DNA of 64,000 bases from NCBI GenBank assembly GCA_947450475.1, contig CANFVK010000005.1, forward strand, positions 95,763 through 159,762. The letters are read 5' to 3'. This stretch comes from Bacteriovoracaceae bacterium. GTDB taxonomy: Bacteria; Bdellovibrionota; Bacteriovoracia; Bacteriovoracales; Bacteriovoracaceae. The translations under genes and the position numbers were made by a program. Below, in pieces: positions 25,712 through 37,577 of this stretch (positions are counted from its first letter, which is position 1; every line of letters begins with the position of its first letter). Under the pieces are notes generated by a model. It had not been told where the DNA came from, did no database searches, and saw nothing but the letters and a program-made list of their open reading frames with translations.

Positions 25712-28700
25712 ATGTTAAAAATACTCATTTTGTTATCACTTACTTTTAATTTGGCGTTTGCCAAGTCGCGCTTTACGGAAGAAGACCGTCGCAAATTCAT
25801 GGAGGAAGTAAAGCAAGGTATTGCCGCCCACAAGGTAGACAATAAAGGTAATGTTGATTTTCAAATTATAAAGCCTACCCTCTACGAAGAGTTGGACATT
25901 TATTATAAGCAACAAAAATTTACCCGCGAAGAAGTTGTTAAAATGAAGCAGGATTATGAGGGTTTTATTAAAAAATCGTCGAACCTTTTTAGTGGAGATG
26001 AAAAAGAAAAAGCCTTCATTTCTTTTATTGAGCAAGATTTAAATGAAATCAATCAATCCGAAGTTGCAAAAATAAAAGAAGGTGAAGTCTGCAATAATTG
26101 GGGCTGTGAAGAAGGTCTAAAGTGTGCTCCTGATCCAGTACAGGTCGATGGTAAATCGTGTTTAAAAATGGGCAAAGAGTGTCGTGATGATAAGGATTGC
26201 TGCTCCTCTTCCTGTACTATGGATACAAAAAAGCAAAAGAGATTTTGCGAAGAAGTCTATCGTTGCTTTAAGCCTCTTGATTTGGGTGAATCATGTATGA
26301 CTAACCCTGTTTGTGGAGAAGGCGATTGCTTGCCTTATAATTCTAAAACTTCTGGAATTGGTGAGTGCGAGGATAACAAACATTCTTGTAAAAAAAATAG
26401 CGATTGCTGCTCTAATTCGTGCGTTGAAAAAAAATGCTCAATCTCTTTCATCTGTAAAGATTGTGTAAAAAACGGCAGTAAACCTCAAAGAGGACAAACG
26501 TGTTGCGAGGGGCTTTATCAAGATCAATCTGGACGCTGCGTTCCTGATATGCCTCCAATCGTTCCACCACAGGTAAAAAATGACAAAGTCTCTGATAAAA
26601 TAGTTGCGACCCTGGCTTCTCTTTTGTTGAATTCGGCCCATGCAGATGAAGCCTATGACGAAGTTAATTCGGATCGTGACAAATACTCCAATTATCAAGC
26701 GACCTCATCAACACCAGATGCGGTAAAGGTTAAATCTGCTAATTTTACTTTGACCAGAAAATCAGACTTCAATACTTGTGACGTAAAATTTAGAGATGAC
26801 TTCCTTCAGTACTTGCAACAAGAAAAATTACTTGATTTAGAGCTGGCGATGATTTCTTTTAACTTTGTCTTTCTCGGGGATGGAGTTAACGATTATTGGA
26901 AACTGACATCGGATGAAAACTCTTCAATTTATGGCAGGCTTAAGGCGATTGCTCAGAGACAGCAACAAATGCGTGAAGCTGATAACGCTAAAATGCAAAC
27001 TATTAACCATAAACTTACTTGTATGTGTCTTGATGCTCAGGGTTTTCAAAACATAAAAGATGAAACCAAAAAGAAATTTTTCATGGAAGAATGTGAGGAA
27101 TATAAAACAGCTCTTGCTGGAGCTGTTTGTTACAAATCAGTTCCATGCGATACGGCGTCTGCTGGAACGCCAGTGTGTAACAATGGTCGGATGTTAACAA
27201 CGAATGGTTGTCTTTTGGGTGAGAGTGATTGCGTGTGTACTCAAAGTCAAATTCAAAGTATTCAAAAAGAAACAGCTTCTGGGATAAAAGGTAAACGCTT
27301 AATCGTAACTTTTACTTCAAAGTTAACTGAGTTTAATCAAGCTCTGACTGTCGATCATACGGAAACATACAATGCTATCAGTAAGGTTGGAGCTTATACC
27401 AATCAAGCCAATTGGAATGATACTAGTACTAAAACTTATTCATTATTTAATTTTAGCTTAAAAAATCCAAGCGGAAGTGTCGCTGCCATGGGAGCCATCC
27501 TTGGTGCACTATTAGCTGCAGGGGTTATTGCCGTTTTAGGTGGCTTTGCTACAACGTCGATGCTTTCAGCATGGGCCGCAGCTGGAATCATTGCAACTTC
27601 GGCCGCAACCGGGGGAACTGGATTGTGGTTGATAGCATCTTTAAAAGGAGCTTGGATTTCTAAGAGACCTGTGGTTTATGACAACATGATAAGCCAGTAT
27701 GGTTGTGGAAAAAAAGAAACATGCCAAGATTGGAGCCGCAAATTAACTCAGCCATATAACAATATTTGTAATGTTCACGCTTCGGCCAATGCTTGTGTGA
27801 AGAATTTTGTGGTGTGGAATGATGAAGCTACCGGTGAGCCTCGCTATGTAGTCGATCCTTGGGTTCCATGGGGAGTGCCTAAAGCTGAACTCCTAAGAGA
27901 TACTGGAGGAGTACGCAATTACGCTGAGAAATTAGAAGATGGATTCCAAGAAGCAAAAGATGCCATGATAGCTAAAAACCCAGGGGCCACCGGTGGCGGT
28001 GGTAAAGATGGTGGTGGAGCATTTGTATCTGAAGATTATATGCGCCAACTTTTTATCGACTCTGATGTGCTTGGGCATTATGCTCCCAAAATAGGAACAG
28101 ATGAAAATCAATACTTACTTACTTCAGATGTTGTAGAAAAAATTAAGACTCAAGCTGGTAAATTCCTAATTCTTTCTCAATTAGTTGAAAGACACGTAAT
28201 TGCATCGCCAACAAAAGATATGCAAACTTCTCGTTACTGCGTTAAGGATACGGATCAATCGATTTACTGTTCAGATGATAAGGACAATATTGATAAGTTT
28301 GCCGATTATGCGTATGAATTTCACTTTAAATGGCCAAAAACATCTCGCTTAAAAGAAATAAGTTATCCAACTGTTGCGCTCTCAACTTATTTAGATCTCA
28401 TGTCAAATGGTGTTGTGTTCTCAATGGCTTCTGGTGCTACTAAAGCCGCAAATACTTTTGGTCTGTTGAATGCTCAGTATCTCGACGATTATTTGAAAAC
28501 GTTGGACCTCTATAAGAGTAATACGGTTGACTGTGCCGCTGGACAAACCTGTACGGGGACATCGAAAACGATTAGTACCGATGCAGATAAAGTTAAAGCA
28601 GATCTTGATGCTCAGAAATTAACAAATGCCTTGGCCGGAAATGGCACTCTAGATGCCCAGTTATTAAACTTAAATCCGAACACATTAAGTGGAGCGGCTA

Positions 28701-29425
28701 AACAAGCGGGAATCAACGGAGGAAATTTATCATCAGGACAATCTGCTTTCTTGAATGCCATCGGCTCGCTAAGAAAAGCTCGAAAAGATCAGCTTAAAAA
28801 ATTAGATTTTTTCAATAAAGCCATGGCTTCTAAAGGAAAATCAAATGCTGATCGCACTGCCAAGATGGCGGCAGTCTCTAAAAAATTCTCTAATGCTTTC
28901 ATCAAGCCTTTAAGTGGTGGGCGTGGCGGTTCATCATCTGGATCAAGCCTCTTTGGTTCTGGTGGAGCAGATGGACTGAGCTCTGATGCCAACGGTAAAG
29001 ATAAAAATGGTAGCGGTGGTGATGGAAGTGGAAAAAATGGGGCGGGCAGTGGATATGGAGCTTACGGTATAGGGTCGCTAGGGAATGGGACCTATGGTAA
29101 CGGTGGAGACGGTTCAGGTGCAAATGCTTACGGAGCTGGCGGCGATGGAAGTGGAAACGGCTATGGTAAAAACGGCAAAGGTGGTACTGGCAGTGGAGAT
29201 ACAGGTGCCAACTTAAATGCTCTTGGTAAAGCTAATGGTATGAGTGATGAGGATGCACGCCGATTAGCAGAAGCAATTGAAGCTCGTGATCGTGCCAACC
29301 AAGAAAAATATAAATCACAAGCCGATAAAACTTTATTTGAACAAGTTACAAACGCTTATATTAGAAATTACGACAAAGTATTAATTAAGAAAAAGACTGA
29401 CAAGGACGTCATTGAGCAAAAGTAA
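25712..29425 (+). CDS. Giant (1237 aa) exported cysteine-rich protein with an internal TM hairpin and a Gly-rich tail
   Basis: Signal peptide MLKILILLSLTFNLAFA. Cys-rich block at aa 127-276 containing two C-x6-C-x5-CC-x3-C-xn-C modules. Two hydrophobic helices at aa ~589-645. GGDGSG-type repeats near the C-terminus. Confidence 0.7.
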   Translation: MLKILILLSLTFNLAFAKSRFTEEDRRKFMEEVKQGIAAHKVDNKGNVDFQIIKPTLYEELDIYYKQQKFTREEVVKMKQDYEGFIKKSSNLFSGDEKEKAFISFIEQDLNEINQSEVAKIKEGEVCNNWGCEEGLKCAPDPVQVDGKSCLKMGKECRDDKDCCSSSCTMDTKKQKRFCEEVYRCFKPLDLGESCMTNPVCGEGDCLPYNSKTSGIGECEDNKHSCKKNSDCCSNSCVEKKCSISFICKDCVKNGSKPQRGQTCCEGLYQDQSGRCVPDMPPIVPPQVKNDKVSDKIVATLASLLLNSAHADEAYDEVNSDRDKYSNYQATSSTPDAVKVKSANFTLTRKSDFNTCDVKFRDDFLQYLQQEKLLDLELAMISFNFVFLGDGVNDYWKLTSDENSSIYGRLKAIAQRQQQMREADNAKMQTINHKLTCMCLDAQGFQNIKDETKKKFFMEECEEYKTALAGAVCYKSVPCDTASAGTPVCNNGRMLTTNGCLLGESDCVCTQSQIQSIQKETASGIKGKRLIVTFTSKLTEFNQALTVDHTETYNAISKVGAYTNQANWNDTSTKTYSLFNFSLKNPSGSVAAMGAILGALLAAGVIAVLGGFATTSMLSAWAAAGIIATSAATGGTGLWLIASLKGAWISKRPVVYDNMISQYGCGKKETCQDWSRKLTQPYNNICNVHASANACVKNFVVWNDEATGEPRYVVDPWVPWGVPKAELLRDTGGVRNYAEKLEDGFQEAKDAMIAKNPGATGGGGKDGGGAFVSEDYMRQLFIDSDVLGHYAPKIGTDENQYLLTSDVVEKIKTQAGKFLILSQLVERHVIASPTKDMQTSRYCVKDTDQSIYCSDDKDNIDKFADYAYEFHFKWPKTSRLKEISYPTVALSTYLDLMSNGVVFSMASGATKAANTFGLLNAQYLDDYLKTLDLYKSNTVDCAAGQTCTGTSKTISTDADKVKADLDAQKLTNALAGNGTLDAQLLNLNPNTLSGAAKQAGINGGNLSSGQSAFLNAIGSLRKARKDQLKKLDFFNKAMASKGKSNADRTAKMAAVSKKFSNAFIKPLSGGRGGSSSGSSLFGSGGADGLSSDANGKDKNGSGGDGSGKNGAGSGYGAYGIGSLGNGTYGNGGDGSGANAYGAGGDGSGNGYGKNGKGGTGSGDTGANLNALGKANGMSDEDARRLAEAIEARDRANQEKYKSQADKTLFEQVTNAYIRNYDKVLIKKKTDKDVIEQK

Positions 29426-30536
29426 TTTTGATGAAAAGAATAAAACGAGACTAGTTAACTTAGATTTCTTACGCGGATTATTTGTCATCTTAGCACTCGA
29501 TCAACATTTCACGTACTACATTAACATGTGGTACGTGTCTTATTTTAGAGATGTCATGGCGCTCACTTCAACATACAAAATTAATTTTCCTATGATCGGT
29601 CACCAAATTTCAACAGATCGTTTTAATCTTATGCTTGGAATTATATTCACCCCTTGGGTGAGTCAAGTGTATCTTACAATGGCTTCATTTAATTTGGCCC
29701 GCAAGCCCAGCTACCTTTTTAGAGATGAATTAGCTTCGAAGCTCAAAATGTTTGGACTTATTTTTATTTTTTTTACTTTAGAAAATTTTATAGTCGCACC
29801 CAACAGTGGTGAAGCCATTTCGTTTTATCCCATTATGTTGTGGATGGTGGTAATGAGCATTATTTCCATTTTTTACAGCTTGATGGGGATTAGAGGGGTC
29901 TTGTTACTTACACTGATATCATTTTTACGCTGGGTTGTGCCCATTGATATGCTGTCAAATCTTTTTCAAAGTATAATCCGTTATAATATTCATCCTGGTT
30001 TTGAATATGATGCTCGCATTGAATATTTTTTCTCTTCGGGCTGTTTGGGATTCATAATGGGTCATGCCCATTATCACATGCCCAATTACAAAAAAGTGAA
30101 AGACTTCTATTTCATGCTATTGGGACTTGTTTTTGTTTTATTTTATTGGGCCTATGGGATTCCTTATATAATTGATCCATCCAACGCTTTTGCGCATGAG
30201 CACGATATGGCCCAAAGCTTTAGTGGGACTCTTTTTATTTTAGGAGTTCAGGCATTTGTAATCTCAACTTTTTTATGGCTTGAAAAAAAAGAAATACGAT
30301 TTAATGTTCCGATATTTACATGGGTGGGAGCAAATTCATTGCTTGTTTTTGCCCTTCACAGAGTTTTCTTTGTCAAGTTTTTAGCCCCCGTTAGCTTGAT
30401 GGTGGGAAGCATGCTGGGGCGACCGATTGGAGCTTCAACTTATGAGCTCTACAGTTATGTAGGTCTCACCATAGCATTTTGCTATTTTGTAAAAGCAACT
30501 CGTCTCAATGAAATACTTGTGACAAGAAAAGGATAA
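29412..30536 (+). CDS. Polytopic membrane protein, acyltransferase-3/DUF1624-like (heparan N-acetyltransferase-like)
   Basis: N-terminal RLVNLDFLRGLFVILALDQHF resembles the R-x-x-x-D-x-x-RG...H start of these families. About 9-10 TM helices. The TTG start overlaps the upstream stop by 14 nt, with AAGGA upstream. Confidence 0.5.
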   Translation: MSKSNFDEKNKTRLVNLDFLRGLFVILALDQHFTYYINMWYVSYFRDVMALTSTYKINFPMIGHQISTDRFNLMLGIIFTPWVSQVYLTMASFNLARKPSYLFRDELASKLKMFGLIFIFFTLENFIVAPNSGEAISFYPIMLWMVVMSIISIFYSLMGIRGVLLLTLISFLRWVVPIDMLSNLFQSIIRYNIHPGFEYDARIEYFFSSGCLGFIMGHAHYHMPNYKKVKDFYFMLLGLVFVLFYWAYGIPYIIDPSNAFAHEHDMAQSFSGTLFILGVQAFVISTFLWLEKKEIRFNVPIFTWVGANSLLVFALHRVFFVKFLAPVSLMVGSMLGRPIGASTYELYSYVGLTIAFCYFVKATRLNEILVTRKG

Positions 30537-30544
30537 GGAAGACT

Positions 30545-31615
30545 ATGGACACTAGGTCCCAGCATTTAATTTTTGATGCCATTCTTGAAAAAGAGATAAC
30601 ACAAGCTGATGTCGATGGTATTAAAAATGTTATAGAGAAAAATCTAACTGTCGTTGAAAAAGTGGAGTATAAATTTACACCACAAGGTGAAACAATTGTC
30701 TTTATCCTTTCTGAATCCCACTTTAGCCTTCATACCTATCCCGAAAATAAATATATCTCTATGGACATATATGTTTGCAACATGGAAACAAATCTTGAAA
30801 AAATTATCGATGAGATAAAGGGGATTGTTTCGTTTGAGAAAATTGAATCGCGCATTTTGCCCAGAGGTAGAATTGCTCAGGGAACGATTGATCGAAGTGT
30901 TCAAGTCGTTTATTTGCTAACCATCGTTGTCGCCTGTTGTAGTATCTTGTACGAGTTTTTATTGGCGCAATCTATTTCCACCACGATGGGCAATACCGCA
31001 TTGAGATACAATTTAACCATTGGACTTTTTATAGCTTCAATGGGATTTGGGGCCATCTTGTACAAAAAACTAATTGGGCCAGATCATTTTAAAGAATTTA
31101 TCAAAGTAGAGCTCTTACTTTCCCTTATCGGTGGTATTGCTCCAGTTCTAGTTTTGATTATTGATTATTTTTTTAATTCATTTGCCAAAATATCCAATGT
31201 TTCATTTTTTTCATTTTGGATACAGGCTCCACTTTTTTCGATAAATCACTTGCTAATTGTCGCGATTGGCTTTCTTTCTGGCTTGGAATTACCTCTATTG
31301 ATGGATATGAGCAAGAAGTTCACAACGACGAAAGGGCATTTTGTATTAGCATATGATTATTTAGGCACATTGCTTGGAGCGATTTTATTTCCTATTATTA
31401 TTCTGCCTAATTTGCACTTGTTTACAATCGGCTATGTCGTCTCTGCAATCAATATTTTAGTAGCACTCTTTGTGATGATTAAAATGAAAATAAATCATCG
31501 CGGCTATCGTTTGGCAATATGGCTGATGTTGATTACTTGGATTTTTGTAATTATTCAATCAACTTCTCTCAATGAATTTATTGTTGAAAGATTCTATTTT
31601 GGCGGGAAGTTTTAA
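30545..31615 (+). CDS. S-adenosylmethionine decarboxylase (SpeH-type pyruvoyl proenzyme) fused to a polytopic membrane domain
   Basis: FILSESHFSLHTYPE matches the class-1 AdoMetDC self-cleavage motif (E57|S58, Ser codon at nt 30716-30718). Residues ~115-356 are multi-TM and resemble the N-terminal domain of the next gene. Confidence 0.7.
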   Translation: MDTRSQHLIFDAILEKEITQADVDGIKNVIEKNLTVVEKVEYKFTPQGETIVFILSESHFSLHTYPENKYISMDIYVCNMETNLEKIIDEIKGIVSFEKIESRILPRGRIAQGTIDRSVQVVYLLTIVVACCSILYEFLLAQSISTTMGNTALRYNLTIGLFIASMGFGAILYKKLIGPDHFKEFIKVELLLSLIGGIAPVLVLIIDYFFNSFAKISNVSFFSFWIQAPLFSINHLLIVAIGFLSGLELPLLMDMSKKFTTTKGHFVLAYDYLGTLLGAILFPIIILPNLHLFTIGYVVSAINILVALFVMIKMKINHRGYRLAIWLMLITWIFVIIQSTSLNEFIVERFYFGGKF

Positions 31616-33330
31616 TGGACAAACGATCATTAATTAAAGCAGAACTTTTTTTAATAACTAGTCTTTTAGCTTTTTGTAGCATTGTCTACGAACTTCTTCT
31701 GTCGAATACCTTAGCGATAGTTACCCAGAATTATATCTGGTGGCAATCTTTCACAATTGGGATTTATATAGGTGGATTGGGACTTGGAGCTTATTTTTCA
31801 GATAGGTTCAAAGATACATATAAAAACATTATCAGCGTGGAACTATTGCTGTCGTTTTTTGGTGCTATTTGTGTGCTCTATGTCTATCTTTTTCATGGTA
31901 TATATAAATATATAGACAGTTTGTTTTTCTACACCGGCGATTTCTACTCAACCTTTTATTTGCAAAATGTTTTTTTATTGAAAATAGTTTTTTTTATTGC
32001 CATTCAGGTACTCACGCTTTCTATTGGAACACTTTCTGGGTTTGAAATTCCTCTTATGATGAAAATGGCAGTTGAAAGACTTGGAGAGTCTGAAGAGGGA
32101 GAGCATTATATATTAGGGGTCAATTATCTAGGAACACTGATTGGAACAATTTGTTTTGCTTACTTTTTATTGCCTAAATTAGATGTAGTAAAAACATCTG
32201 TTTTCGTCGCACTCTTGAATCTTTTAGTATGCCTCTATTTCCTGGTAAGATATGTAAAGAAAAATCGAGCTCTATATTCTAGCTTTACAGTGGCCATTGC
32301 TTTACTTATTTCAGTTGTTGGATTTAATGAAAGCTCCATCACTCAGGGCTATTTAAAGTTCTTTTATTATCTTCCCAAAATCCTGGCGAAAGATAATCTT
32401 GATTTCACTGACCTTGTACGAAGAATTGAAGGATTTAAGCCAATCGAAAGAACTAAATCACTTTACCAGTATGTTGATATTTTTAATTATCCAATGACTG
32501 AAGATGGAATTGTTAAGGATTCAACCATATTAACTCTTGATACTAATTTTCAGTTCAACACTGCTACTGAGTTTTATTATCATCAGGCCTTTGCTCATAT
32601 TTCGATAGCTTTAAATAAGAAAATTCCCAAAAGAATACTTATGCTTGGTGGGGGAGATGGTCTTTTATTAAGAGAATTATTAAAATATCCTGAAATCGAA
32701 TTCATAAAGCAAATTGAACTAGATCAAAAGATGATTGATCTTGCTAATTCGCGTTTTGCAGAGCTCAACAAGCACTCAATGCAGGATCCAAGAGTTCATA
32801 CTGAAATTAACGATGGATTCTATTACGCTAGAACAACTAATGAAAAATTCGACGCTGTTTTTATTGATTTTCCTTACCCAAATTCTTACGACCTCTCTCG
32901 TTTGTATAGCGTTGAATTCTATTCATACGTTAGAAAATTACTAAATCCCAACGGTTTTGTCGTACTGGATTCACCTTTTTATAATAAGGTAGATTACAAC
33001 AAAGATCGCTATCAAGGCCGTGTTGTTTTCACTCAGGTCTTTAACGATGTCCAGGTTAAAAGCAATAGTGTTGTCGCAAGCACGTTTTATTATGCTGGTT
33101 TCAAATCATTTTTTCCTTATCGGGTTTCAGATGAATCTTTTATATTCCTGAAGGAGGAGCCAGGCATGATTGATTTCAATTTTATGGATGGTGCCGATCT
33201 CTCTAAATTGCAACCGCAAACGATTAGAGAAATGAAAGAAATAAAAAACCAACAATTTCCCTATAGAATTGCCTTCAAGTTCGTCAACTCAATCTTTAAG
33301 CCTACTCTCATAAGAAAGAACGAATTTTAA
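31615..33330 (+). CDS. Membrane-anchored spermidine-synthase-like aminopropyltransferase with an atypical acceptor motif
   Basis: About 7 N-terminal TM helices. GGGDG at nt 32647-32661, IELD, DPRV. DFPYP sits in place of the canonical D-S-(S/T)-D-P (nt 32866-32880). The ATG shares 1 nt with the upstream TAA. Confidence 0.8.
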   Translation: MDKRSLIKAELFLITSLLAFCSIVYELLLSNTLAIVTQNYIWWQSFTIGIYIGGLGLGAYFSDRFKDTYKNIISVELLLSFFGAICVLYVYLFHGIYKYIDSLFFYTGDFYSTFYLQNVFLLKIVFFIAIQVLTLSIGTLSGFEIPLMMKMAVERLGESEEGEHYILGVNYLGTLIGTICFAYFLLPKLDVVKTSVFVALLNLLVCLYFLVRYVKKNRALYSSFTVAIALLISVVGFNESSITQGYLKFFYYLPKILAKDNLDFTDLVRRIEGFKPIERTKSLYQYVDIFNYPMTEDGIVKDSTILTLDTNFQFNTATEFYYHQAFAHISIALNKKIPKRILMLGGGDGLLLRELLKYPEIEFIKQIELDQKMIDLANSRFAELNKHSMQDPRVHTEINDGFYYARTTNEKFDAVFIDFPYPNSYDLSRLYSVEFYSYVRKLLNPNGFVVLDSPFYNKVDYNKDRYQGRVVFTQVFNDVQVKSNSVVASTFYYAGFKSFFPYRVSDESFIFLKEEPGMIDFNFMDGADLSKLQPQTIREMKEIKNQQFPYRIAFKFVNSIFKPTLIRKNEF

Positions 33331-34382
33331 ATGCTGTCTGCGCCCGCAACATATAGCGATAACCCCAAGTCAATCCATTCAGCAAGAGGTTTAGGTCCTA
33401 AGAGAGACTGTAAGAAATCTTTTTCAGTTAGTTCAAATTGTTTGTTATCAAATATTATTATCACCTTAGAATCATGGATAACTTTAATTTCAAGTCTGCC
33501 ATCAGAGACATTGGCAAGAAAAAGATTTAATTCTTTGGGATCTCCAAGTTTCATAAATGCGGTATAAAAAATTTCCTTGTTTTGAGACAGAACTTGTTCG
33601 CTTTCAGGAAGCCATAGTTTGAAAACTTCAAGTTCCTTTATTATTTGGGCATACTCCTTTAGTCCTAGACACGAAATCTCATGAATAATATTTGTTAAAT
33701 CTCTTCCCTTGTTAACACAGAAATATTTTTCAATACAATGATCAGAGTTTCTTTTTATATAAAGGTCAATCGAAGACATGCCACGGATAATCGACCAATC
33801 TTTTTGTTCTCGTTTAATGGTAAAAAAATGATTTTGATTAAAATGAACATAAAGATTAACAATGGTCTCAAAGTCATTTTCAGATAATTCGGAAAATTGA
33901 GTTCGCTCGTAGCCTATTGGCCTCTGGTCATGTTGGAATATTGTTTTGCCAGTTTCGATTAAACCACCTGTGCGATAAAAAGAAAATTTTTCATATAATC
34001 CCTCAATCTCACTCCATAGTAGAAACAAGGAGACCTTATCTTGAAATTTAACTAGTACATGGTTCAAAAGTGTTTTGAAAAATTTTTTTCCACGATATTT
34101 TTTTGCAGTTACAATTCCACCAATGATTGCGACAGGAGTCTCCACCCCATTTTTAACGGCGATGCGCTCACATACTGATAAATGGGCCACAACCTGATTG
34201 CTTTCTTGGTCAATAATAACAAAACAATTTTCAAAATTTAGTGGATGTACCAAGGGCGCAAAGTCGATGTCAAAATGATTATCTTGATGATAATGAAATT
34301 CTTCTTCTATAAGGAGAATTGTTTCTTCAAAATATTCTGGATTCTCAGATAAAGTAGTCAGAACATATTTATTTTCATTCAT
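33327..34382 (-). CDS. GNAT N-acetyltransferase with a C-terminal extension (Eis-like architecture)
   Basis: Acetyl-CoA motif A IGGIVTAKKYRGKKFFKTLLNHVL. At 351 aa it is far longer than a minimal GNAT. Convergent with the aminopropyltransferase gene, with a 4-nt overlap. Confidence 0.65.
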   Translation of the reverse strand: MNENKYVLTTLSENPEYFEETILLIEEEFHYHQDNHFDIDFAPLVHPLNFENCFVIIDQESNQVVAHLSVCERIAVKNGVETPVAIIGGIVTAKKYRGKKFFKTLLNHVLVKFQDKVSLFLLWSEIEGLYEKFSFYRTGGLIETGKTIFQHDQRPIGYERTQFSELSENDFETIVNLYVHFNQNHFFTIKREQKDWSIIRGMSSIDLYIKRNSDHCIEKYFCVNKGRDLTNIIHEISCLGLKEYAQIIKELEVFKLWLPESEQVLSQNKEIFYTAFMKLGDPKELNLFLANVSDGRLEIKVIHDSKVIIIFDNKQFELTEKDFLQSLLGPKPLAEWIDLGLSLYVAGADSI

Positions 34383-34625: not shown

Positions 34626-35474
34626 ATGGGACTTCGAATTAACACAAACGTAGCGTCGTTAAACGCTCAGAGGAACTTAGGTTCAACTCGTATCAACATG
34701 AACAAGTCTTTGGAGAAACTTTCTTCAGGGCAAAGAATCAACAGAGCGGGCGACGATGCTGCTGGTCTGGCGATTTCTGAAAATTTAAAAGCACAAATTA
34801 GAGGATTGGGACAAGCAGAAAGAAATGCGGAAGACGGTGTGTCTCTGGTTCAAATTGCGGAAGGTGCACTTGGTGAAGTTTCAAACATCTTAATCAGATT
34901 AAGAGAACTTTCAGTACAGGCTGCTTCTGATACTATCGGTGGTACTGAAAGAAAATTCCTTAACGTGGAATTTGAGCAACTAACTTCGGAAGTTGATCGT
35001 ATTGCTAATTCAACAGAGTTTAACCGCGTACCACTTCTAAATGGAACTGGTGCAGTGTTTGATATCCAAATTGGAACAAGAAACGATCCTATCTCAGATA
35101 GATTAACTTTCGATGCCTCTTCAGCAGATGTCAATGTCGCAGCTTTAGGTTTAAACCTAGCTTCGGTATCTGATAAAATCTCTGCTCAAAACTCACTTAG
35201 TTCAATTGACCAAGCTATAATTTCTGTTTCAGGAATCAGAGCAGACTTTGGTGCTCTTCAAAACAGATTGCAATCAACGGTTAATAATATTCAAGTAAGC
35301 ATTGAAAACCTAGCTTCTGCCAACTCACGTGTAAGAGACACTGACGTGGCCGCAGAAACTGCAGAATTAACTAAACAGAACATCTTAATGCAAGCTGGTA
35401 CTAGTGTGCTTTCTCAAGCTAACTCAAGTACTAACACAGCACTAAGCTTGATCCAAGCAGCATCTCAGCGCTAA
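34626..35474 (+). CDS. fliC: Flagellin, copy 1
   Basis: MGLRINTNVASLNAQRNL N-terminus, and a C-terminal ...LSQANSSTNTALSLIQ. GGAGGA RBS. Confidence 0.95.
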   Translation: MGLRINTNVASLNAQRNLGSTRINMNKSLEKLSSGQRINRAGDDAAGLAISENLKAQIRGLGQAERNAEDGVSLVQIAEGALGEVSNILIRLRELSVQAASDTIGGTERKFLNVEFEQLTSEVDRIANSTEFNRVPLLNGTGAVFDIQIGTRNDPISDRLTFDASSADVNVAALGLNLASVSDKISAQNSLSSIDQAIISVSGIRADFGALQNRLQSTVNNIQVSIENLASANSRVRDTDVAAETAELTKQNILMQAGTSVLSQANSSTNTALSLIQAASQR

Positions 35475-35671: not shown

Positions 35672-36508
35672 ATGGGCTTAAGAATAAATACAAATATCCC
35701 GTCTTTATCGGCGCAGAGATCTTTGGGAATTACTTCAAGAAACTTAAATGATAACTTGAGAAAGCTATCATCAGGCGAAAGAATAACCAGATCGGGTGAC
35801 GATGCAGCAGGATTAGCGATAAGTGAAAACTTAAAAGCGCAGATCAGAGGAATGAGACAGGCCAAAAGAAATGCTGGCGATGCTATCTCAATGTTACAAA
35901 CGGCAGAAGGTGGAATGAATGAAATATCTAACATCATCATCAGACTTAGAGAACTTTCAGTCCAAGCCGCTTCGGACACAGTGGGAGCAACCGAGAGAGG
36001 TTTCTCAGATATTGAATTCCAAAATCTCAAAGATGAGATCGACAGAATTGCAAAATCTACAGAATTCAACGGAATTAAACTTCTCGATGGTTCTGGCGGA
36101 AAACTCGATTTCCAAATTGGTATTAAAAATGATCCGACTCTCGACAGGCTTAGCTATGACGGAGCAAGATCAGACGCCTCCCTACATGCTCTTGGTTTGG
36201 CAGTAGATGGGGTGACGACGAAGGAAAATGCTCAATCTTCGCTTAAAAAACTTGATGATGCCTTAGTGCAAATCAACGGTATAAGAGCGAATTTTGGTGC
36301 CCTTCAAAATCGGTTGCAATCAACAAGCAACAATCTTGAAGTCAGCGATGAAAATTTATCTGCTGCCAATTCGAGAGTAAGAGATGTTGATGTAGCGGCT
36401 GAAACCGCAGAGATGACAAAGAATAATATTCTTCATCAGGCCGGAGTTTCAGTACTAGCGCAAGCGAATCAAACGCCAAACTCAGCTTTAAAACTACTAC
36501 AAGGTTAA
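35672..36508 (+). CDS. fliC: Flagellin, copy 2
   Basis: MGLRINTNIPSLSAQRSL N-terminus and conserved C-terminal helices. Paralog of copy 1. Confidence 0.95.
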   Translation: MGLRINTNIPSLSAQRSLGITSRNLNDNLRKLSSGERITRSGDDAAGLAISENLKAQIRGMRQAKRNAGDAISMLQTAEGGMNEISNIIIRLRELSVQAASDTVGATERGFSDIEFQNLKDEIDRIAKSTEFNGIKLLDGSGGKLDFQIGIKNDPTLDRLSYDGARSDASLHALGLAVDGVTTKENAQSSLKKLDDALVQINGIRANFGALQNRLQSTSNNLEVSDENLSAANSRVRDVDVAAETAEMTKNNILHQAGVSVLAQANQTPNSALKLLQG

Positions 36509-36578: not shown

Positions 36579-37577
36579 ATGAACAACGAACAAGATAATT
36601 TCACCGACAAAAGAAAAACAATATTGATTATGGGGATCAATTCTTTCATAGGCTCAAACTTAGTTGAGTTTTTTAAAAAGGATTATCGCGTAGTTGGAAC
36701 TTTTTTCAAAAAGAATCCTGCGACCCAGGGGATACTTTGTCTTCCATGTGATGTTTTAGAAAAAGAACAAGTCCAACTGGTGCTTTATGCGCTCAAACCA
36801 GATGTCGTTCTCTATTGCGTAGGTCTTACTGGTTTAAAAGACTGTAATGATTTACCCAACCGATGTGATGCTCTAAACTCTGCCGGACTTTTTAATGTTG
36901 CAGAAATGGCACCTCGTTATGGTGCTAGAGTCATGTATTTTTCTTCTCACTTTGTTTTTGCTGGAATGAATAAGAACTATATTGAAATGGATAATCCTGA
37001 CGTTATAACTAATTATGGCAAGGCGCAGGCTTCAGCAGAATTTTACTTACAAAAATCTTCACTCAATTATCTCATTTTTAGATGTGGCAAGCTTTATGGG
37101 CGTGGTGTTTCCCCAACCAAGAACACTTTTTTTGAGTTGTTACAAAAAAATTTGAAAAATAATCAAAGCGCTAACTACGACAATTATGTTCACCAAGGTT
37201 TCCTTGATGTCTATTACCTGGGATTAATGGTCAAGATGTGCATAGATAAAAATATTTCTAATCGCCTGATCCATTTTACCTCTCAAGACATAGTTACCTA
37301 TTACGAATTTGCTAAGCTTTATTGTGAAATATTCAATCAATCTGACGGATTAATAAATACTGGCAAATGGTTTTTTCCCATCAGCAAAGGCGCAAATATA
37401 GAAAAATTGGAAGAGCATCTTTATTACAAGTTAGATCTCTTAAATGTCGAATCGCTTTTAAAAATTAAAATGCCGACAGTCAGAGAATCGCTAGAGTTCA
37501 CCTTTAAAAGATTTCAAGGCAACAAGCAAGTGACCAATGCCGTAACGAATAAGGGGGACGGAGTTTCGTTTGTTTAA
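36579..37577 (+). CDS. NAD(P)-dependent sugar epimerase/reductase (extended SDR, RmlD-like)
   Basis: Rossmann ILIMGINSFIGSNL. Catalytic YGKAQASAE (YxxxK). Confidence 0.7.
   Translation: MNNEQDNFTDKRKTILIMGINSFIGSNLVEFFKKDYRVVGTFFKKNPATQGILCLPCDVLEKEQVQLVLYALKPDVVLYCVGLTGLKDCNDLPNRCDALNSAGLFNVAEMAPRYGARVMYFSSHFVFAGMNKNYIEMDNPDVITNYGKAQASAEFYLQKSSLNYLIFRCGKLYGRGVSPTKNTFFELLQKNLKNNQSANYDNYVHQGFLDVYYLGLMVKMCIDKNISNRLIHFTSQDIVTYYEFAKLYCEIFNQSDGLINTGKWFFPISKGANIEKLEEHLYYKLDLLNVESLLKIKMPTVRESLEFTFKRFQGNKQVTNAVTNKGDGVSFV

Follow-up and report, generated by a model that had tools for sequence, protein, structure and literature searches.

Two paralogous seven-helix membrane proteins, one carrying AdoMetDC and one a SpeE-like domain, as candidate subunits of a membrane aminopropylation system in Bacteriovoracaceae

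The window analysed here, a stretch of 64,000 nt from a predatory Bacteriovoracaceae bacterium (contig CANFVK010000005.1), contains a four-gene operon followed by a convergent gene, with ORF1 and ORF2 as the third and fourth genes of the operon (Table 1). The first operon gene overlaps the next ORF by 14 nt, whilst the stop codon of ORF1 and the start codon of ORF2 share one base (TAATG), an arrangement through which ORF2 is predicted to be translationally coupled to ORF1. At the other end, the GNAT gene overlaps the 3′ end of ORF2 with its own 3′ end by 4 nt; this association is limited to close relatives, and the gene is possibly an accessory one. A scan for promoters and terminators returned sites no more numerous than those in shuffled sequence and did not define the operon boundaries. 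The 374-aa protein encoded upstream of ORF1 is a conserved member of the cluster, present at 25 loci. Its profile had no match among PDB sequences; an hhalign chain (77 % and 97.7 %) connected it to a family matching Pfam HGSNAT_cat, and two of its homologues carry PF01757. Taken together, there is moderate evidence that it is an acyltransferase of the AT3/HGSNAT clan, a gene of which neighbours about 41 of the 69 loci surveyed below.

Table 1. Genes, domains and sites at the locus, numbered from the first base of the window
Feature	Position (nt)	Strand	Basis or remark
First operon gene, 1237-aa secreted Cys-rich and Gly-rich protein	25712..29425	+	Lineage-specific
Upstream 374-aa polytopic protein, putative divergent AT3/HGSNAT-clan membrane acyltransferase	29412..30536	+	hhalign chain; PF01757 in homologues
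ORF1 ribosome-binding site, AGGA-type	7-8 nt 5′ of ATG		
ORF1, AdoMetDC-7TM fusion, 356 aa	30545..31615	+	Domain searches, AF2
Class-1b AdoMetDC proenzyme domain, ORF1 residues 1-112	30545..30880	+	Pfam PF02675, PDB matches, Foldseek
Ser58 codon, predicted self-cleavage site/pyruvoyl precursor (Glu57|Ser58)	30716..30718	+	Aligned to T. maritima S63
Partner-type 7TM domain, ORF1 residues 117-356	30893..31612	+	AF2, residue conservation, tree grouping
ORF2, 7TM-aminopropyltransferase, 571 aa	31615..33330	+	Domain searches, AF2
SpeE-type 7TM domain, ORF2 residues 1-258 including post-TM7 helix	31615..32388	+	AF2 helices
Aminopropyltransferase catalytic domain, ORF2 residues ~275-571	32437..33327	+	Pfam PF01564, Foldseek
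GGGDG, ORF2 residues 345-349	32647-32661	+	
Catalytic Asp418 inside DFPYP, ORF2	32866-32868	+	
GNAT (Acetyltransf_9) gene, convergent	33327..34382	-	Pfam

The N-terminal part of ORF1 is a class-1b AdoMetDC domain with intact Ser58, His63 and Cys78. The class-1 pyruvoyl signature that the original prediction had assigned to this region is indeed present: residues 31-108 matched Pfam AdoMet_dc (PF02675; E-value 2.3e-18, 66.9 bits, cutoff 25), the domain matched PDB entries 2iii (E-value 4e-10) and 1tlu (E-value 1e-8), and Ser58, His63 and Cys78 aligned with S63, H68 and C83 of T. maritima AdoMetDC, which are the processing serine (S63) and catalytic residues (H68 and C83) of that enzyme (PMC10407285). 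Across 53 homologues of ORF1, Ser58 was invariant and all three residues were either invariant or at least 90 % conserved. The domain missed the equivalog cutoff of NCBIfam TIGR03330 (66.0 vs 75.65 bits), which is cleared by unfused AdoMetDCs in sister clusters (120 and 117 bits). Furthermore, the AdoMetDC domains of five relatives (P0125, P0128, P0129, P0135 and P0145) are degenerate, having lost the ES/HTxPE motifs, and thus the fused domain is not always catalytic. In the AF2 model of ORF1 (pLDDT 88.3), residues 5-107 adopt the AdoMetDC fold, and Foldseek aligned this domain with T. maritima AdoMetDC (1vr7 and 1tlu) at a TM-score of 0.76-0.78 and an rmsd of 2.5-2.8 Å. The rest of the protein, earlier described simply as multi-TM, was modelled as seven long helices between residues 117 and 337 (117-148, 151-171, 181-217, 224-257, 264-289, 292-313 and 319-337), followed by a terminal, interfacial helix at 339-351. 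Conserved residues of this 7TM domain are E137, E189, E248, D271, Y136, Y155, Y272 and N303, and the four acidic residues amongst them (E/E/E/D), embedded in the membrane, are invariant or nearly so.

ORF2 has, in its AF2 model, seven helices at residues 3-237 and then a Spermine_synth domain (PF01564; E-value 6.8e-29, 101.2 bits, cutoff 22.9), the best Foldseek matches of which were 1uir (E-value 8e-13) and 3anx. The proposal that the donor-making enzyme sits on one membrane paralogue and the transferase on its counterpart is therefore borne out, with PF02675 on ORF1 and PF01564 on ORF2. Spermidine synthases such as those of T. maritima and human possess the putrescine-site motif D-S/C-T/S-D-P, with both Asp residues present. 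ORF2 does not have the full motif but reads DFPYP, which keeps an invariant first Asp (D418) and has Tyr421 in place of the other; across the 69 SpeE-domain relatives the acceptor motif is DFPxP. The GGGDG motif is invariant in ORF2 homologues, and G(G/A)GDG occurs in 66 of the 69 SpeE domains. As the acidic residue in GxG(D/E)G selects dcSAM over SAM (PMC10349129), the SpeE domain of ORF2 is predicted to be a dcSAM-type aminopropyltransferase.

The suggested kinship of the two membrane domains was checked by pairwise alignment, in which they shared 31 % identity over 239 aa (BLASTP, E-value 6e-21) and had a Smith-Waterman score of 278, against 46 ± 8 for 500 shuffles (z = 28) and 47-51 for an unrelated polytopic protein of the same operon used as a control. 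Both domains matched the N-terminal half of NCBIfam NF002956 (E-values 4e-38 and 3e-77), and each of the shared motif strings originally quoted for them was found in the sequence. By these comparisons the two domains are true paralogues. The idea that a single membrane scaffold had been duplicated thus holds as regards paralogy, but not as regards a local event. In an NJ tree, fused and free partner TM domains formed one clade, separate from the SpeE-fused TM domains, and the TM domain of ORF1 grouped with free-standing partner proteins of ~230-250 aa rather than with that of ORF2. The duplication of the 7TM domain is ancient and widespread, and the element specific to the lineage is the fusion of AdoMetDC onto a pre-existing 7TM partner. 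No Pfam family covers the TM domain, and Foldseek searches of the PDB with both AF2 models returned AdoMetDC or SpeE matches only, with no credible match to the TM fold and no known transporter fold. The best long alignment, to 9d7x, was rejected as a structural match for the TM domain (TM-score 0.33, rmsd 11 Å).

A homologue search returned 184 related protein clusters, and a genome scan using an alignment of 11 partner sequences contributed to a survey of 69 species-level loci from about ten phyla. Typically, such a locus encodes the 7TM partner, the AdoMetDC and the 7TM-SpeE protein, the first two as free-standing proteins. With A for AdoMetDC, T for 7TM and S for SpeE, the layouts included AT/TS (19 loci), T/TS (12), T/A/TS (11), T/TS/A(-) (three), TTS/A (two), A/T/TS (one) and ATS (one). 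The single A/T/TS locus (L020) represents an unfused version with the same gene order as the window. Additionally, a free partner gene was found at five loci that had no neighbouring 7TM-SpeE gene, and 7TM-SpeE occurred alone at three. Within this survey the AdoMetDC-7TM fusion is confined to Bacteriovoracaceae and Halobacteriovorax, where it recurs as a protein of 348-382 aa in 19 species-representative genomes, and thus is not an assembly artefact. In most of the 69 loci a gene of the partner 7TM type lies next to one of the 7TM-SpeE type, and the stop codon of one frequently overlaps the start codon of the other; the window, with its adjacent genes and conserved E/E/E/D membrane residues, fits the paired 7TM partner/7TM-SpeE system that we define here. 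Single-chain 7TM-7TM-SpeE (T-T-S) and AdoMetDC-7TM-SpeE fusions also occur naturally, the former in several Bdellovibrionota lineages. In all tandem T-T-S proteins the first copy ends after TM6 and is joined to the second by a hydrophilic linker (6+7 helices), whilst in the triple fusions P0142, P0146 and L047 AdoMetDC is separated from SpeE by seven hydrophobic segments.

The adjacency of the two gene types at most loci, together with the T-T-S and AdoMetDC-7TM-SpeE fusions, favours a physical pairing of the TM domains, and the natural fusions support a parallel arrangement for the putative complex. The comparative evidence thus favours the pairing proposed in the original prediction, although not as a simple heterodimer: class-1b AdoMetDC and SpeE enzymes are themselves dimers, as seen in T. 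maritima structures, and hence a 2:2 assembly is more likely. For 107 relatives of all architectures, mean K+R counts were 2-3 in loops 2, 4 and 6, 1.2-3.1 in the N-terminal flank and 0-1.6 in loops 1, 3 and 5; the first 15 residues past TM7 also hold about two K+R, a point against the topology proposed below. This loop bias, the seven helices of the triple fusions and the missing helix 7 of the first tandem copy place the N-termini in the cytoplasm and SpeE outside, as predicted from the positive-inside rule and helix counting. Comparison with relatives therefore suggests that donor synthesis and transfer take place on opposite faces of the cell membrane, in which case dcSAM would have to cross it. 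The channelling of dcSAM that had been envisaged would, as such, probably not be a lateral hand-over between two cytoplasmic enzymes, because the topology evidence sets SpeE opposite AdoMetDC. An antiparallel (dual-topology) pairing was also considered and rejected, as all architectures share the same charge bias and the tandem fusions have 6+7 helices. We know of no precedent for an enzyme that depends on SAM or dcSAM and works outside the cytoplasm of a bacterium. An external SpeE domain would also release MTA outside the cell, a consequence that counts against the model.

The closest known system is the cluster that Li et al. reportedly described in 2019, where a class-1b AdoMetDC gene lies beside a membrane-SpdSyn-like fusion gene and the function is thought to fall outside putrescine-to-spermidine synthesis. 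The window resembles this cluster in that the AdoMetDC gene adjoins a gene for an N-terminal membrane domain fused to a SpdSyn-like domain, but differs in that its AdoMetDC carries a membrane domain of its own, paralogous to the first. The cluster type reportedly includes a DUF350 membrane protein, whereas Pfam scans of five window ORFs, those of the operon and the GNAT gene, gave no match to DUF350, PspA or CesT. Soluble AdoMetDC-aminopropyltransferase fusions making spermidine and related polyamines are said to have been reported by Green et al. in 2011 (Mol Microbiol; cited in PMC12803844). These likewise couple the donor-making and donor-using enzymes physically; in the window, unlike in the soluble fusions, the coupling runs via two paralogous 7TM domains, and the rare single-chain relatives have seven TM helices between the enzymes. 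AT3-SGNH enzymes such as OatA, and likewise HGSNAT, transfer acyl groups across the membrane, from a donor in the cytoplasm to an acceptor outside it. By analogy, the logic proposed here would comprise a cytoplasmic donor, a polytopic domain passing it across the membrane and an outward-facing transferase, and a gene of the AT3/HGSNAT clan is a conserved neighbour; the chemistry (aminopropyl transfer from dcSAM) and the folds are different. P. aeruginosa SpeD2/SpeE2 (PA4773/PA4774) was rejected as a 'surface polyamine' analogue, since SpeE2 is a stand-alone thermospermine synthase of 349 aa, which was active on expression in E. coli.

The architecture of ORF2 is also that of the PRK03612-type membrane-anchored polyamine aminopropyltransferases (NF002956) and of the '7TM transporter-like + spermine/spermidine synthase-like' proteins found in PspA operons (PMC11237479), but the descriptions of both lack a paired 7TM paralogue, whether free or fused to AdoMetDC. 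Against the NF002956 equivalog cutoff of 472 bits, ORF2 scored 260.2 and ORF1 131.1 (TM half only), and all proteins tested fell below it (260-328 bits); ORF1 and ORF2 are best classed as relatives, not equivalogs, of PRK03612. Matches to the 'fused MFS/spermidine synthase' family NF037959, the type of membrane domain associated with the Li et al. cluster, were weak and below the cutoff for both the ORF2 TM domain (22.9 bits) and the TM regions of relatives (20.7-31 bits; cutoff 40). A further parallel is the fungal methyltransferase NHMT (AN4663), which acts on secreted LPMOs in the ER and, like ORF2, has seven TM helices followed by a spermidine-synthase-fold domain; this domain must act on the non-cytosolic side (PMC10349129). 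Unlike ORF2, NHMT has Ile in place of Asp/Glu in its GxGxG motif, making it a methyltransferase (PMC10349129). No similarity was detected between the NHMT 7TM region, rebuilt as a query from supplement text, and the bacterial TM profile (hmmsearch E-value 0.11, hhalign probability 0.4 %), leaving the parallel as an analogy only. In bacteria, membrane-APT-like fusion proteins were found experimentally to have no part in spermidine or spermine synthesis, as summarized in a later report (PMC12803844, citing Li et al. 2019); such proteins reportedly form no spermidine and fail to complement an E. coli speE mutant.

From these comparisons we think it fairly probable that ORF1 and ORF2 are membrane subunits of a widespread aminopropylation system, in which dcSAM would pass through the 7TM pair to an external transferase acting on an acceptor other than putrescine. 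The parts of such a system would be a free 7TM partner, AdoMetDC and 7TM-SpeE, with AdoMetDC fused to the N-terminus of the partner in Bacteriovoracaceae. Given its intact catalytic residues, the AdoMetDC domain would cleave itself between Glu57 and Ser58 to form the pyruvoyl cofactor and decarboxylate SAM on the cytoplasmic side of the membrane. The 7TM domains of the partner and of ORF2 would pack alongside each other in parallel, as the natural tandem fusions suggest, and charge bias, helix count and fusion architectures point to both being N-in/C-out, with SpeE at the outer surface of the inner membrane. Lined by the invariant Glu, Asp and Tyr residues, the pair may take the cationic dcSAM from AdoMetDC and deliver it to the external transferase, which, with its GGGDG motif, catalytic Asp and altered acceptor site (DFPYP), might aminopropylate an acceptor other than putrescine. 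The acceptor would probably be an envelope component, which the neighbouring AT3/HGSNAT-like transmembrane acyltransferase may modify further. More tentative, and in our estimate somewhat short of an even chance, is the specific combination of an extracytoplasmic SpeE-like domain, a 7TM paralogue pair serving as the dcSAM conduit from a membrane-docked AdoMetDC, and an envelope molecule that is aminopropylated and that the AT3/HGSNAT-like enzyme might N-acylate.

The locus could instead serve ordinary synthesis of spermidine or another polyamine tethered to the membrane, both catalytic domains being cytoplasmic and the TM domains acting as an anchor or scaffold, or exporting the finished polyamine. 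SAM and dcSAM are cytoplasmic metabolites, the catalytic residues of AdoMetDC are intact, the SpeE domain has both GGGDG and the catalytic Asp, the structure that it matches best is that of a genuine polyamine aminopropyltransferase and the source annotations read 'spermidine synthase'; all of this would fit such a role. We nevertheless hold it to be unlikely, as it needs the paralogous 7TM domains to lie in opposite orientations, whilst their K+R bias is the same, TM7 is dropped in the tandem fusions, keeping the copies parallel, and seven helices separate AdoMetDC from SpeE in the triple fusions. The putrescine site, in which a different residue stands at the second acidic position, also speaks against it, as does the failure of related bacterial membrane-APT-like fusions to make spermidine or spermine (PMC12803844).

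Less likely still is that no hetero-complex exists, each protein being a homo-oligomer and adjacency reflecting co-regulation and shared ancestry only. The loci at which one of the two proteins is encoded without the other (five and three, respectively) agree with this, and AdoMetDC and SpeE enzymes are generally known to be homodimeric by themselves; the tight adjacency across about ten phyla, the fusion of both copies into one chain in several Bdellovibrionota lineages and the retention of two distinct paralogue clades do not. Finally, that the N-terminal domain of ORF1 is a neofunctionalized pyruvoyl arginine or ornithine decarboxylase, or a regulatory pseudo-enzyme, seems very improbable: SpeD homologues have repeatedly turned into ADC or ODC (PMC10407285), ORF1 falls below the TIGR03330 cutoff and five relatives have lost the motifs, but its three key residues are conserved in the 53 close homologues, the unfused AdoMetDCs of sister clusters clear that cutoff and the partner transferase has the Asp by which dcSAM is chosen in preference to SAM (criterion of PMC10349129).

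Many bacteria have AdoMetDC genes beside genes for membrane-fused SpdSyn-like proteins, and bacterial membrane-APT-like fusion proteins were shown to lie outside spermidine and spermine synthesis, according to a later summary (PMC12803844, citing Li et al. 2019). The AdoMetDC-7TM fusion in the window places the N-terminal end of the 7TM fold on the cytoplasmic side and, together with the tandem and triple fusions, leads to a testable model of a two-paralogue membrane complex with the transferase outside and dcSAM crossing the membrane. Should the transferase prove to be cytoplasmic, the finding would come down to a known gene pair in a form tethered to the membrane. If the model of an external transferase is true, this would be, to our knowledge, the first case in bacteria of a SAM-derived group being transferred at the outer surface of the inner membrane; the 'polyamine-independent' AdoMetDCs of many phyla would then have an explanation, and the system would represent both a novel kind of envelope modification and a novel conduit for a small molecule.

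ORF1, preceded by a ribosome-binding site of the AGGA type, encodes a class-1 AdoMetDC followed by a multi-spanning membrane domain, in agreement with the original prediction. Pfam AdoMet_dc covers residues 31–108 (E = 2.3e-18), and the domain could be aligned with the class-1b enzymes of T. maritima and A. aeolicus, so that Ser58, His63 and Cys78 correspond to T. maritima S63, H68 and C83, which are processing and catalytic residues (PMC10407285). In the AF2 model (pLDDT 88.3, pTM 0.70; input alignment of 53 sequences), residues 5–107 form the AdoMetDC sandwich, matching T. maritima AdoMetDC with a TM-score of 0.76–0.78 (Foldseek), and are followed by seven long helices (117–148, 151–171, 181–217, 224–257, 264–289, 292–313 and 319–337) and a short terminal helix. 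The proposed paralogy of this seven-helix (7TM) domain with that of ORF2 was borne out in every detail: the two are 31% identical over 239 residues (BLASTP, E 6e-21), their Smith–Waterman score is 278 compared with 46 +/- 8 in shuffles (z = 28) and ~50 for an unrelated multi-spanning protein from this operon, and both align with the N-terminal half of NCBIfam NF002956.

Genes of the region (window positions)
Product	Position	Strand	Length (aa)	Remark
First operon gene	25712-29425	+	1237	14-nt overlap with next ORF
Polytopic protein	29412-30536	+	374	
ORF1, AdoMetDC-7TM	30545-31615	+	356	
ORF2, 7TM-SpeE	31615-33330	+	571	
GNAT (Acetyltransf_9)	33327-34382	-	351	Convergent with ORF2, 3' ends overlap by 4 nt
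Flagellin	34626-35474	+		
Flagellin	35672-36508	+		
NAD-dependent epimerase/dehydratase-like	36579-37577			

An exhaustive phmmer search with ORF1 returned 3842 relatives (E <= 0.001) in five classes: AdoMetDC-7TM proteins (~330–380 aa), many free-standing 7TM proteins (220–250 aa), 7TM-SpeE proteins (580–650 aa), AdoMetDC-7TM-SpeE (P0142, 772 aa; P0146, 762 aa) and 7TM-7TM-SpeE (P0194, P0218). A scan of species-representative genomes identified 69 loci in Bdellovibrionota, Myxococcota, Omnitrophota, Planctomycetota, Verrucomicrobiota, Elusimicrobiota, Patescibacteria, Desulfobacterales, Leptospiraceae and others. Using custom HMMs for AdoMetDC (A), 7TM (T) and SpeE (S), we assigned these to the layouts AT/TS (19 loci, all Bacteriovoracaceae or Halobacteriovorax), T/TS (12), T/A/TS (11), T alone (5), T/TS/A(-) (3), TS alone (3), TTS/A (2), A/T/TS (1; L020, unfused with the gene order of the window), ATS (1) and others (12). 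The free-standing proteins are 40–46% identical to the ORF1 membrane domain, exceeding ORF2, and a neighbour-joining tree of the membrane domains (no bootstrap) unites free partners with AdoMetDC-fused ones and with the first copy of each of two tandem fusions, in a clade that excludes the SpeE-fused domains. This placement of ORF1 indicates that the duplication is not recent and that, in a lineage-specific event, AdoMetDC was fused to a partner subunit that already existed. The earlier observation is confirmed and its interpretation partly supported. Six relatives with an N-domain-7TM layout (P0125, P0128, P0129, P0135, P0145 and P0172) have lost the ES/HTxPE AdoMetDC motifs, and their N-domains look like pseudo-enzyme domains kept on the partner subunit. 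Two loci from Pseudobdellovibrionaceae and Bdellovibrionaceae MAGs (L062, 5959-11291; L070, 5968-11270) contain two T/TS pairs in succession, and therefore a duplication of the whole two-gene module. An Omnitrophota locus (L054, 5291-9169) follows T/A/TS with a second, more divergent 7TM-SpeE gene. In a Myxococcales MAG (L030, 1694-6717), a flavin amine oxidase gene (PF01593) lies between the 7TM-SpeE gene and that of a 591-aa protein, in which a partner-type 7TM domain makes up the C-terminal 220 residues and the N-terminal 370 residues match nothing in Pfam.

ORF2, whose start shares one base with the ORF1 stop (TAATG), comprises seven helices (3–237), an interfacial helix and a Spermine_synth domain (Pfam E 6.8e-29) in its AF2 model (pLDDT 86.2, pTM 0.78), and its top Foldseek match is the T. 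thermophilus aminopropyltransferase. At the spermidine-synthase acceptor motif, D-S-T-D-P, it reads DFPYP, the second Asp being replaced. The invariant GGGDG and catalytic Asp418 are present; the Asp in GxG(D/E)G tells dcSAM users from methyltransferases (PMC10349129). Given the replaced Asp, and since bacterial membrane-APT-like fusion proteins have, according to PMC12803844 (citing Li et al., 2019), been shown by experiment to play no part in spermidine/spermine synthesis, putrescine is probably not the ORF2 acceptor.

In all tandem 7TM-7TM-SpeE proteins (P0194, P0218 and those of loci L064, L068 and L072), the first copy stops after TM6 and a hydrophilic, often basic linker leads to TM1 of the second; without TM7 in the first copy, both share an orientation. 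Such a loss would be expected if the two domains lie next to each other in parallel and TM7 genuinely crosses the membrane. Together with near-obligatory gene adjacency, these fusions constitute Rosetta-stone evidence arguing for the ORF1–ORF2 type of complex proposed originally.

Across 107 aligned relatives from all four architecture classes, Lys+Arg averages 2–3 in each of loops 2, 4 and 6, 1.2–3.1 in the N-flank and 0–1.6 in loops 1, 3 and 5; in the 7TM-SpeE class the N-flank/even-loop side carries ~9.7 versus 1.0 for the odd loops. By the positive-inside rule this bias places the N-terminus in the cytoplasm, as does the presence of a folded 115-residue AdoMetDC that lacks a signal peptide and needs cytoplasmic SAM. 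As hydropathy and AF2 both give seven helices, the C-terminus, hence the SpeE domain, would lie outside. Independently, exactly seven hydrophobic segments separate the two enzymes in single-chain AdoMetDC-7TM-SpeE proteins, again pointing to an outer SpeE domain. We therefore predict SpeE on the outer side and AdoMetDC on the cytoplasmic side of the membrane. A counter-signal is the presence of about two basic residues, one invariant, in the first 15 residues past TM7, and to our knowledge no dcSAM-dependent enzyme has been described outside the cytoplasm of a bacterium.

Were the transferase outside, dcSAM would have to traverse the membrane, and the paired 7TM domains, the sole candidates in the cluster, would form its conduit, supplied directly by the AdoMetDC fused to one of them. 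E137, E189, E248 and D271 are invariant or nearly so in the membrane fold, and Y136, Y155, Y272 and N303 are likewise conserved. With the AF2 helices in the predicted orientation, E189, E248 and D271 would face the cytoplasmic leaflet and E137 would sit deeper, an acidic, aromatic lining that would suit dcSAM, an amine or a similar cationic ligand.

AT and TS end a tightly packed four-gene block kept in Bacteriovoracaceae, after genes for a ~1200–1380-aa secreted protein and a ~370-aa polytopic protein. The 1237-aa protein has no Pfam match; its N-terminus resembles a signal peptide, followed by several Cys-rich modules (about residues 125–270), a Gly/Ala-rich hydrophobic stretch (about 585–650) and a long Gly/Ser/Asn-rich tail. 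Its conservation ahead of the cluster is confined to Bacteriovoracaceae and Halobacteriovorax, and the system may use it as a substrate or surface partner. The 374-aa protein has no direct Pfam match; members of its family were identified in 25 loci, some of them from Myxococcota and Silvanigrellales. By hhalign it relates (77%) to a family from eight Bdellovibrionota loci (Bdellovibrionales, Pseudobdellovibrionaceae and one Bacteriovoracaceae MAG), which in turn relates (97.7%) to an Omnitrophota/Planctomycetota family matching Pfam HGSNAT_cat (E 1e-12); Acyl_transf_3 (PF01757) was detected on two homologues of the 374-aa protein itself. A divergent AT3/HGSNAT-clan transmembrane acyltransferase is thus only moderately supported, and on the same grounds such a gene accompanies ~41 of the 69 loci, across phyla. 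As this class uses cytoplasmic acyl-CoA to modify extracytoplasmic acceptors, an envelope-modification role would fit. The GNAT gene, in the same position in ~15 related loci, might acetylate an amine product. Beyond it, the tandem flagellin genes and epimerase/dehydratase-like gene occur in the same order in Bacteriovorax stolpii (L003).

The closest known system is the AdoMetDC and membrane-SpdSyn-like cluster described by Li et al. (2019), and '7TM transporter-like + SpeE-like' proteins are recorded in a PSP comparative study (PMC11237479). PRK03612/NF002956 is a related family whose cutoff ORF2 and its relatives do not reach; they match NF037959 ('fused MFS/spermidine synthase') only weakly. 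Fungal NHMT has the same architecture as ORF2 (7TM and a SpeE-fold domain), although its 7TM has no detectable similarity to the bacterial profile; its targets in the ER are secreted LPMO proteins (PMC10349129), implying a lumen-facing catalytic domain. Among papers other than Li et al. (2019) and Green et al. (2011), the search turned up none that describes the AdoMetDC-7TM fusion, the free-standing 7TM partner or the predicted topology. The fusion appears to be a new form within a known, functionally unsolved kind of system, and its main value is that, with its relatives, it provides a specific, falsifiable model for that system.
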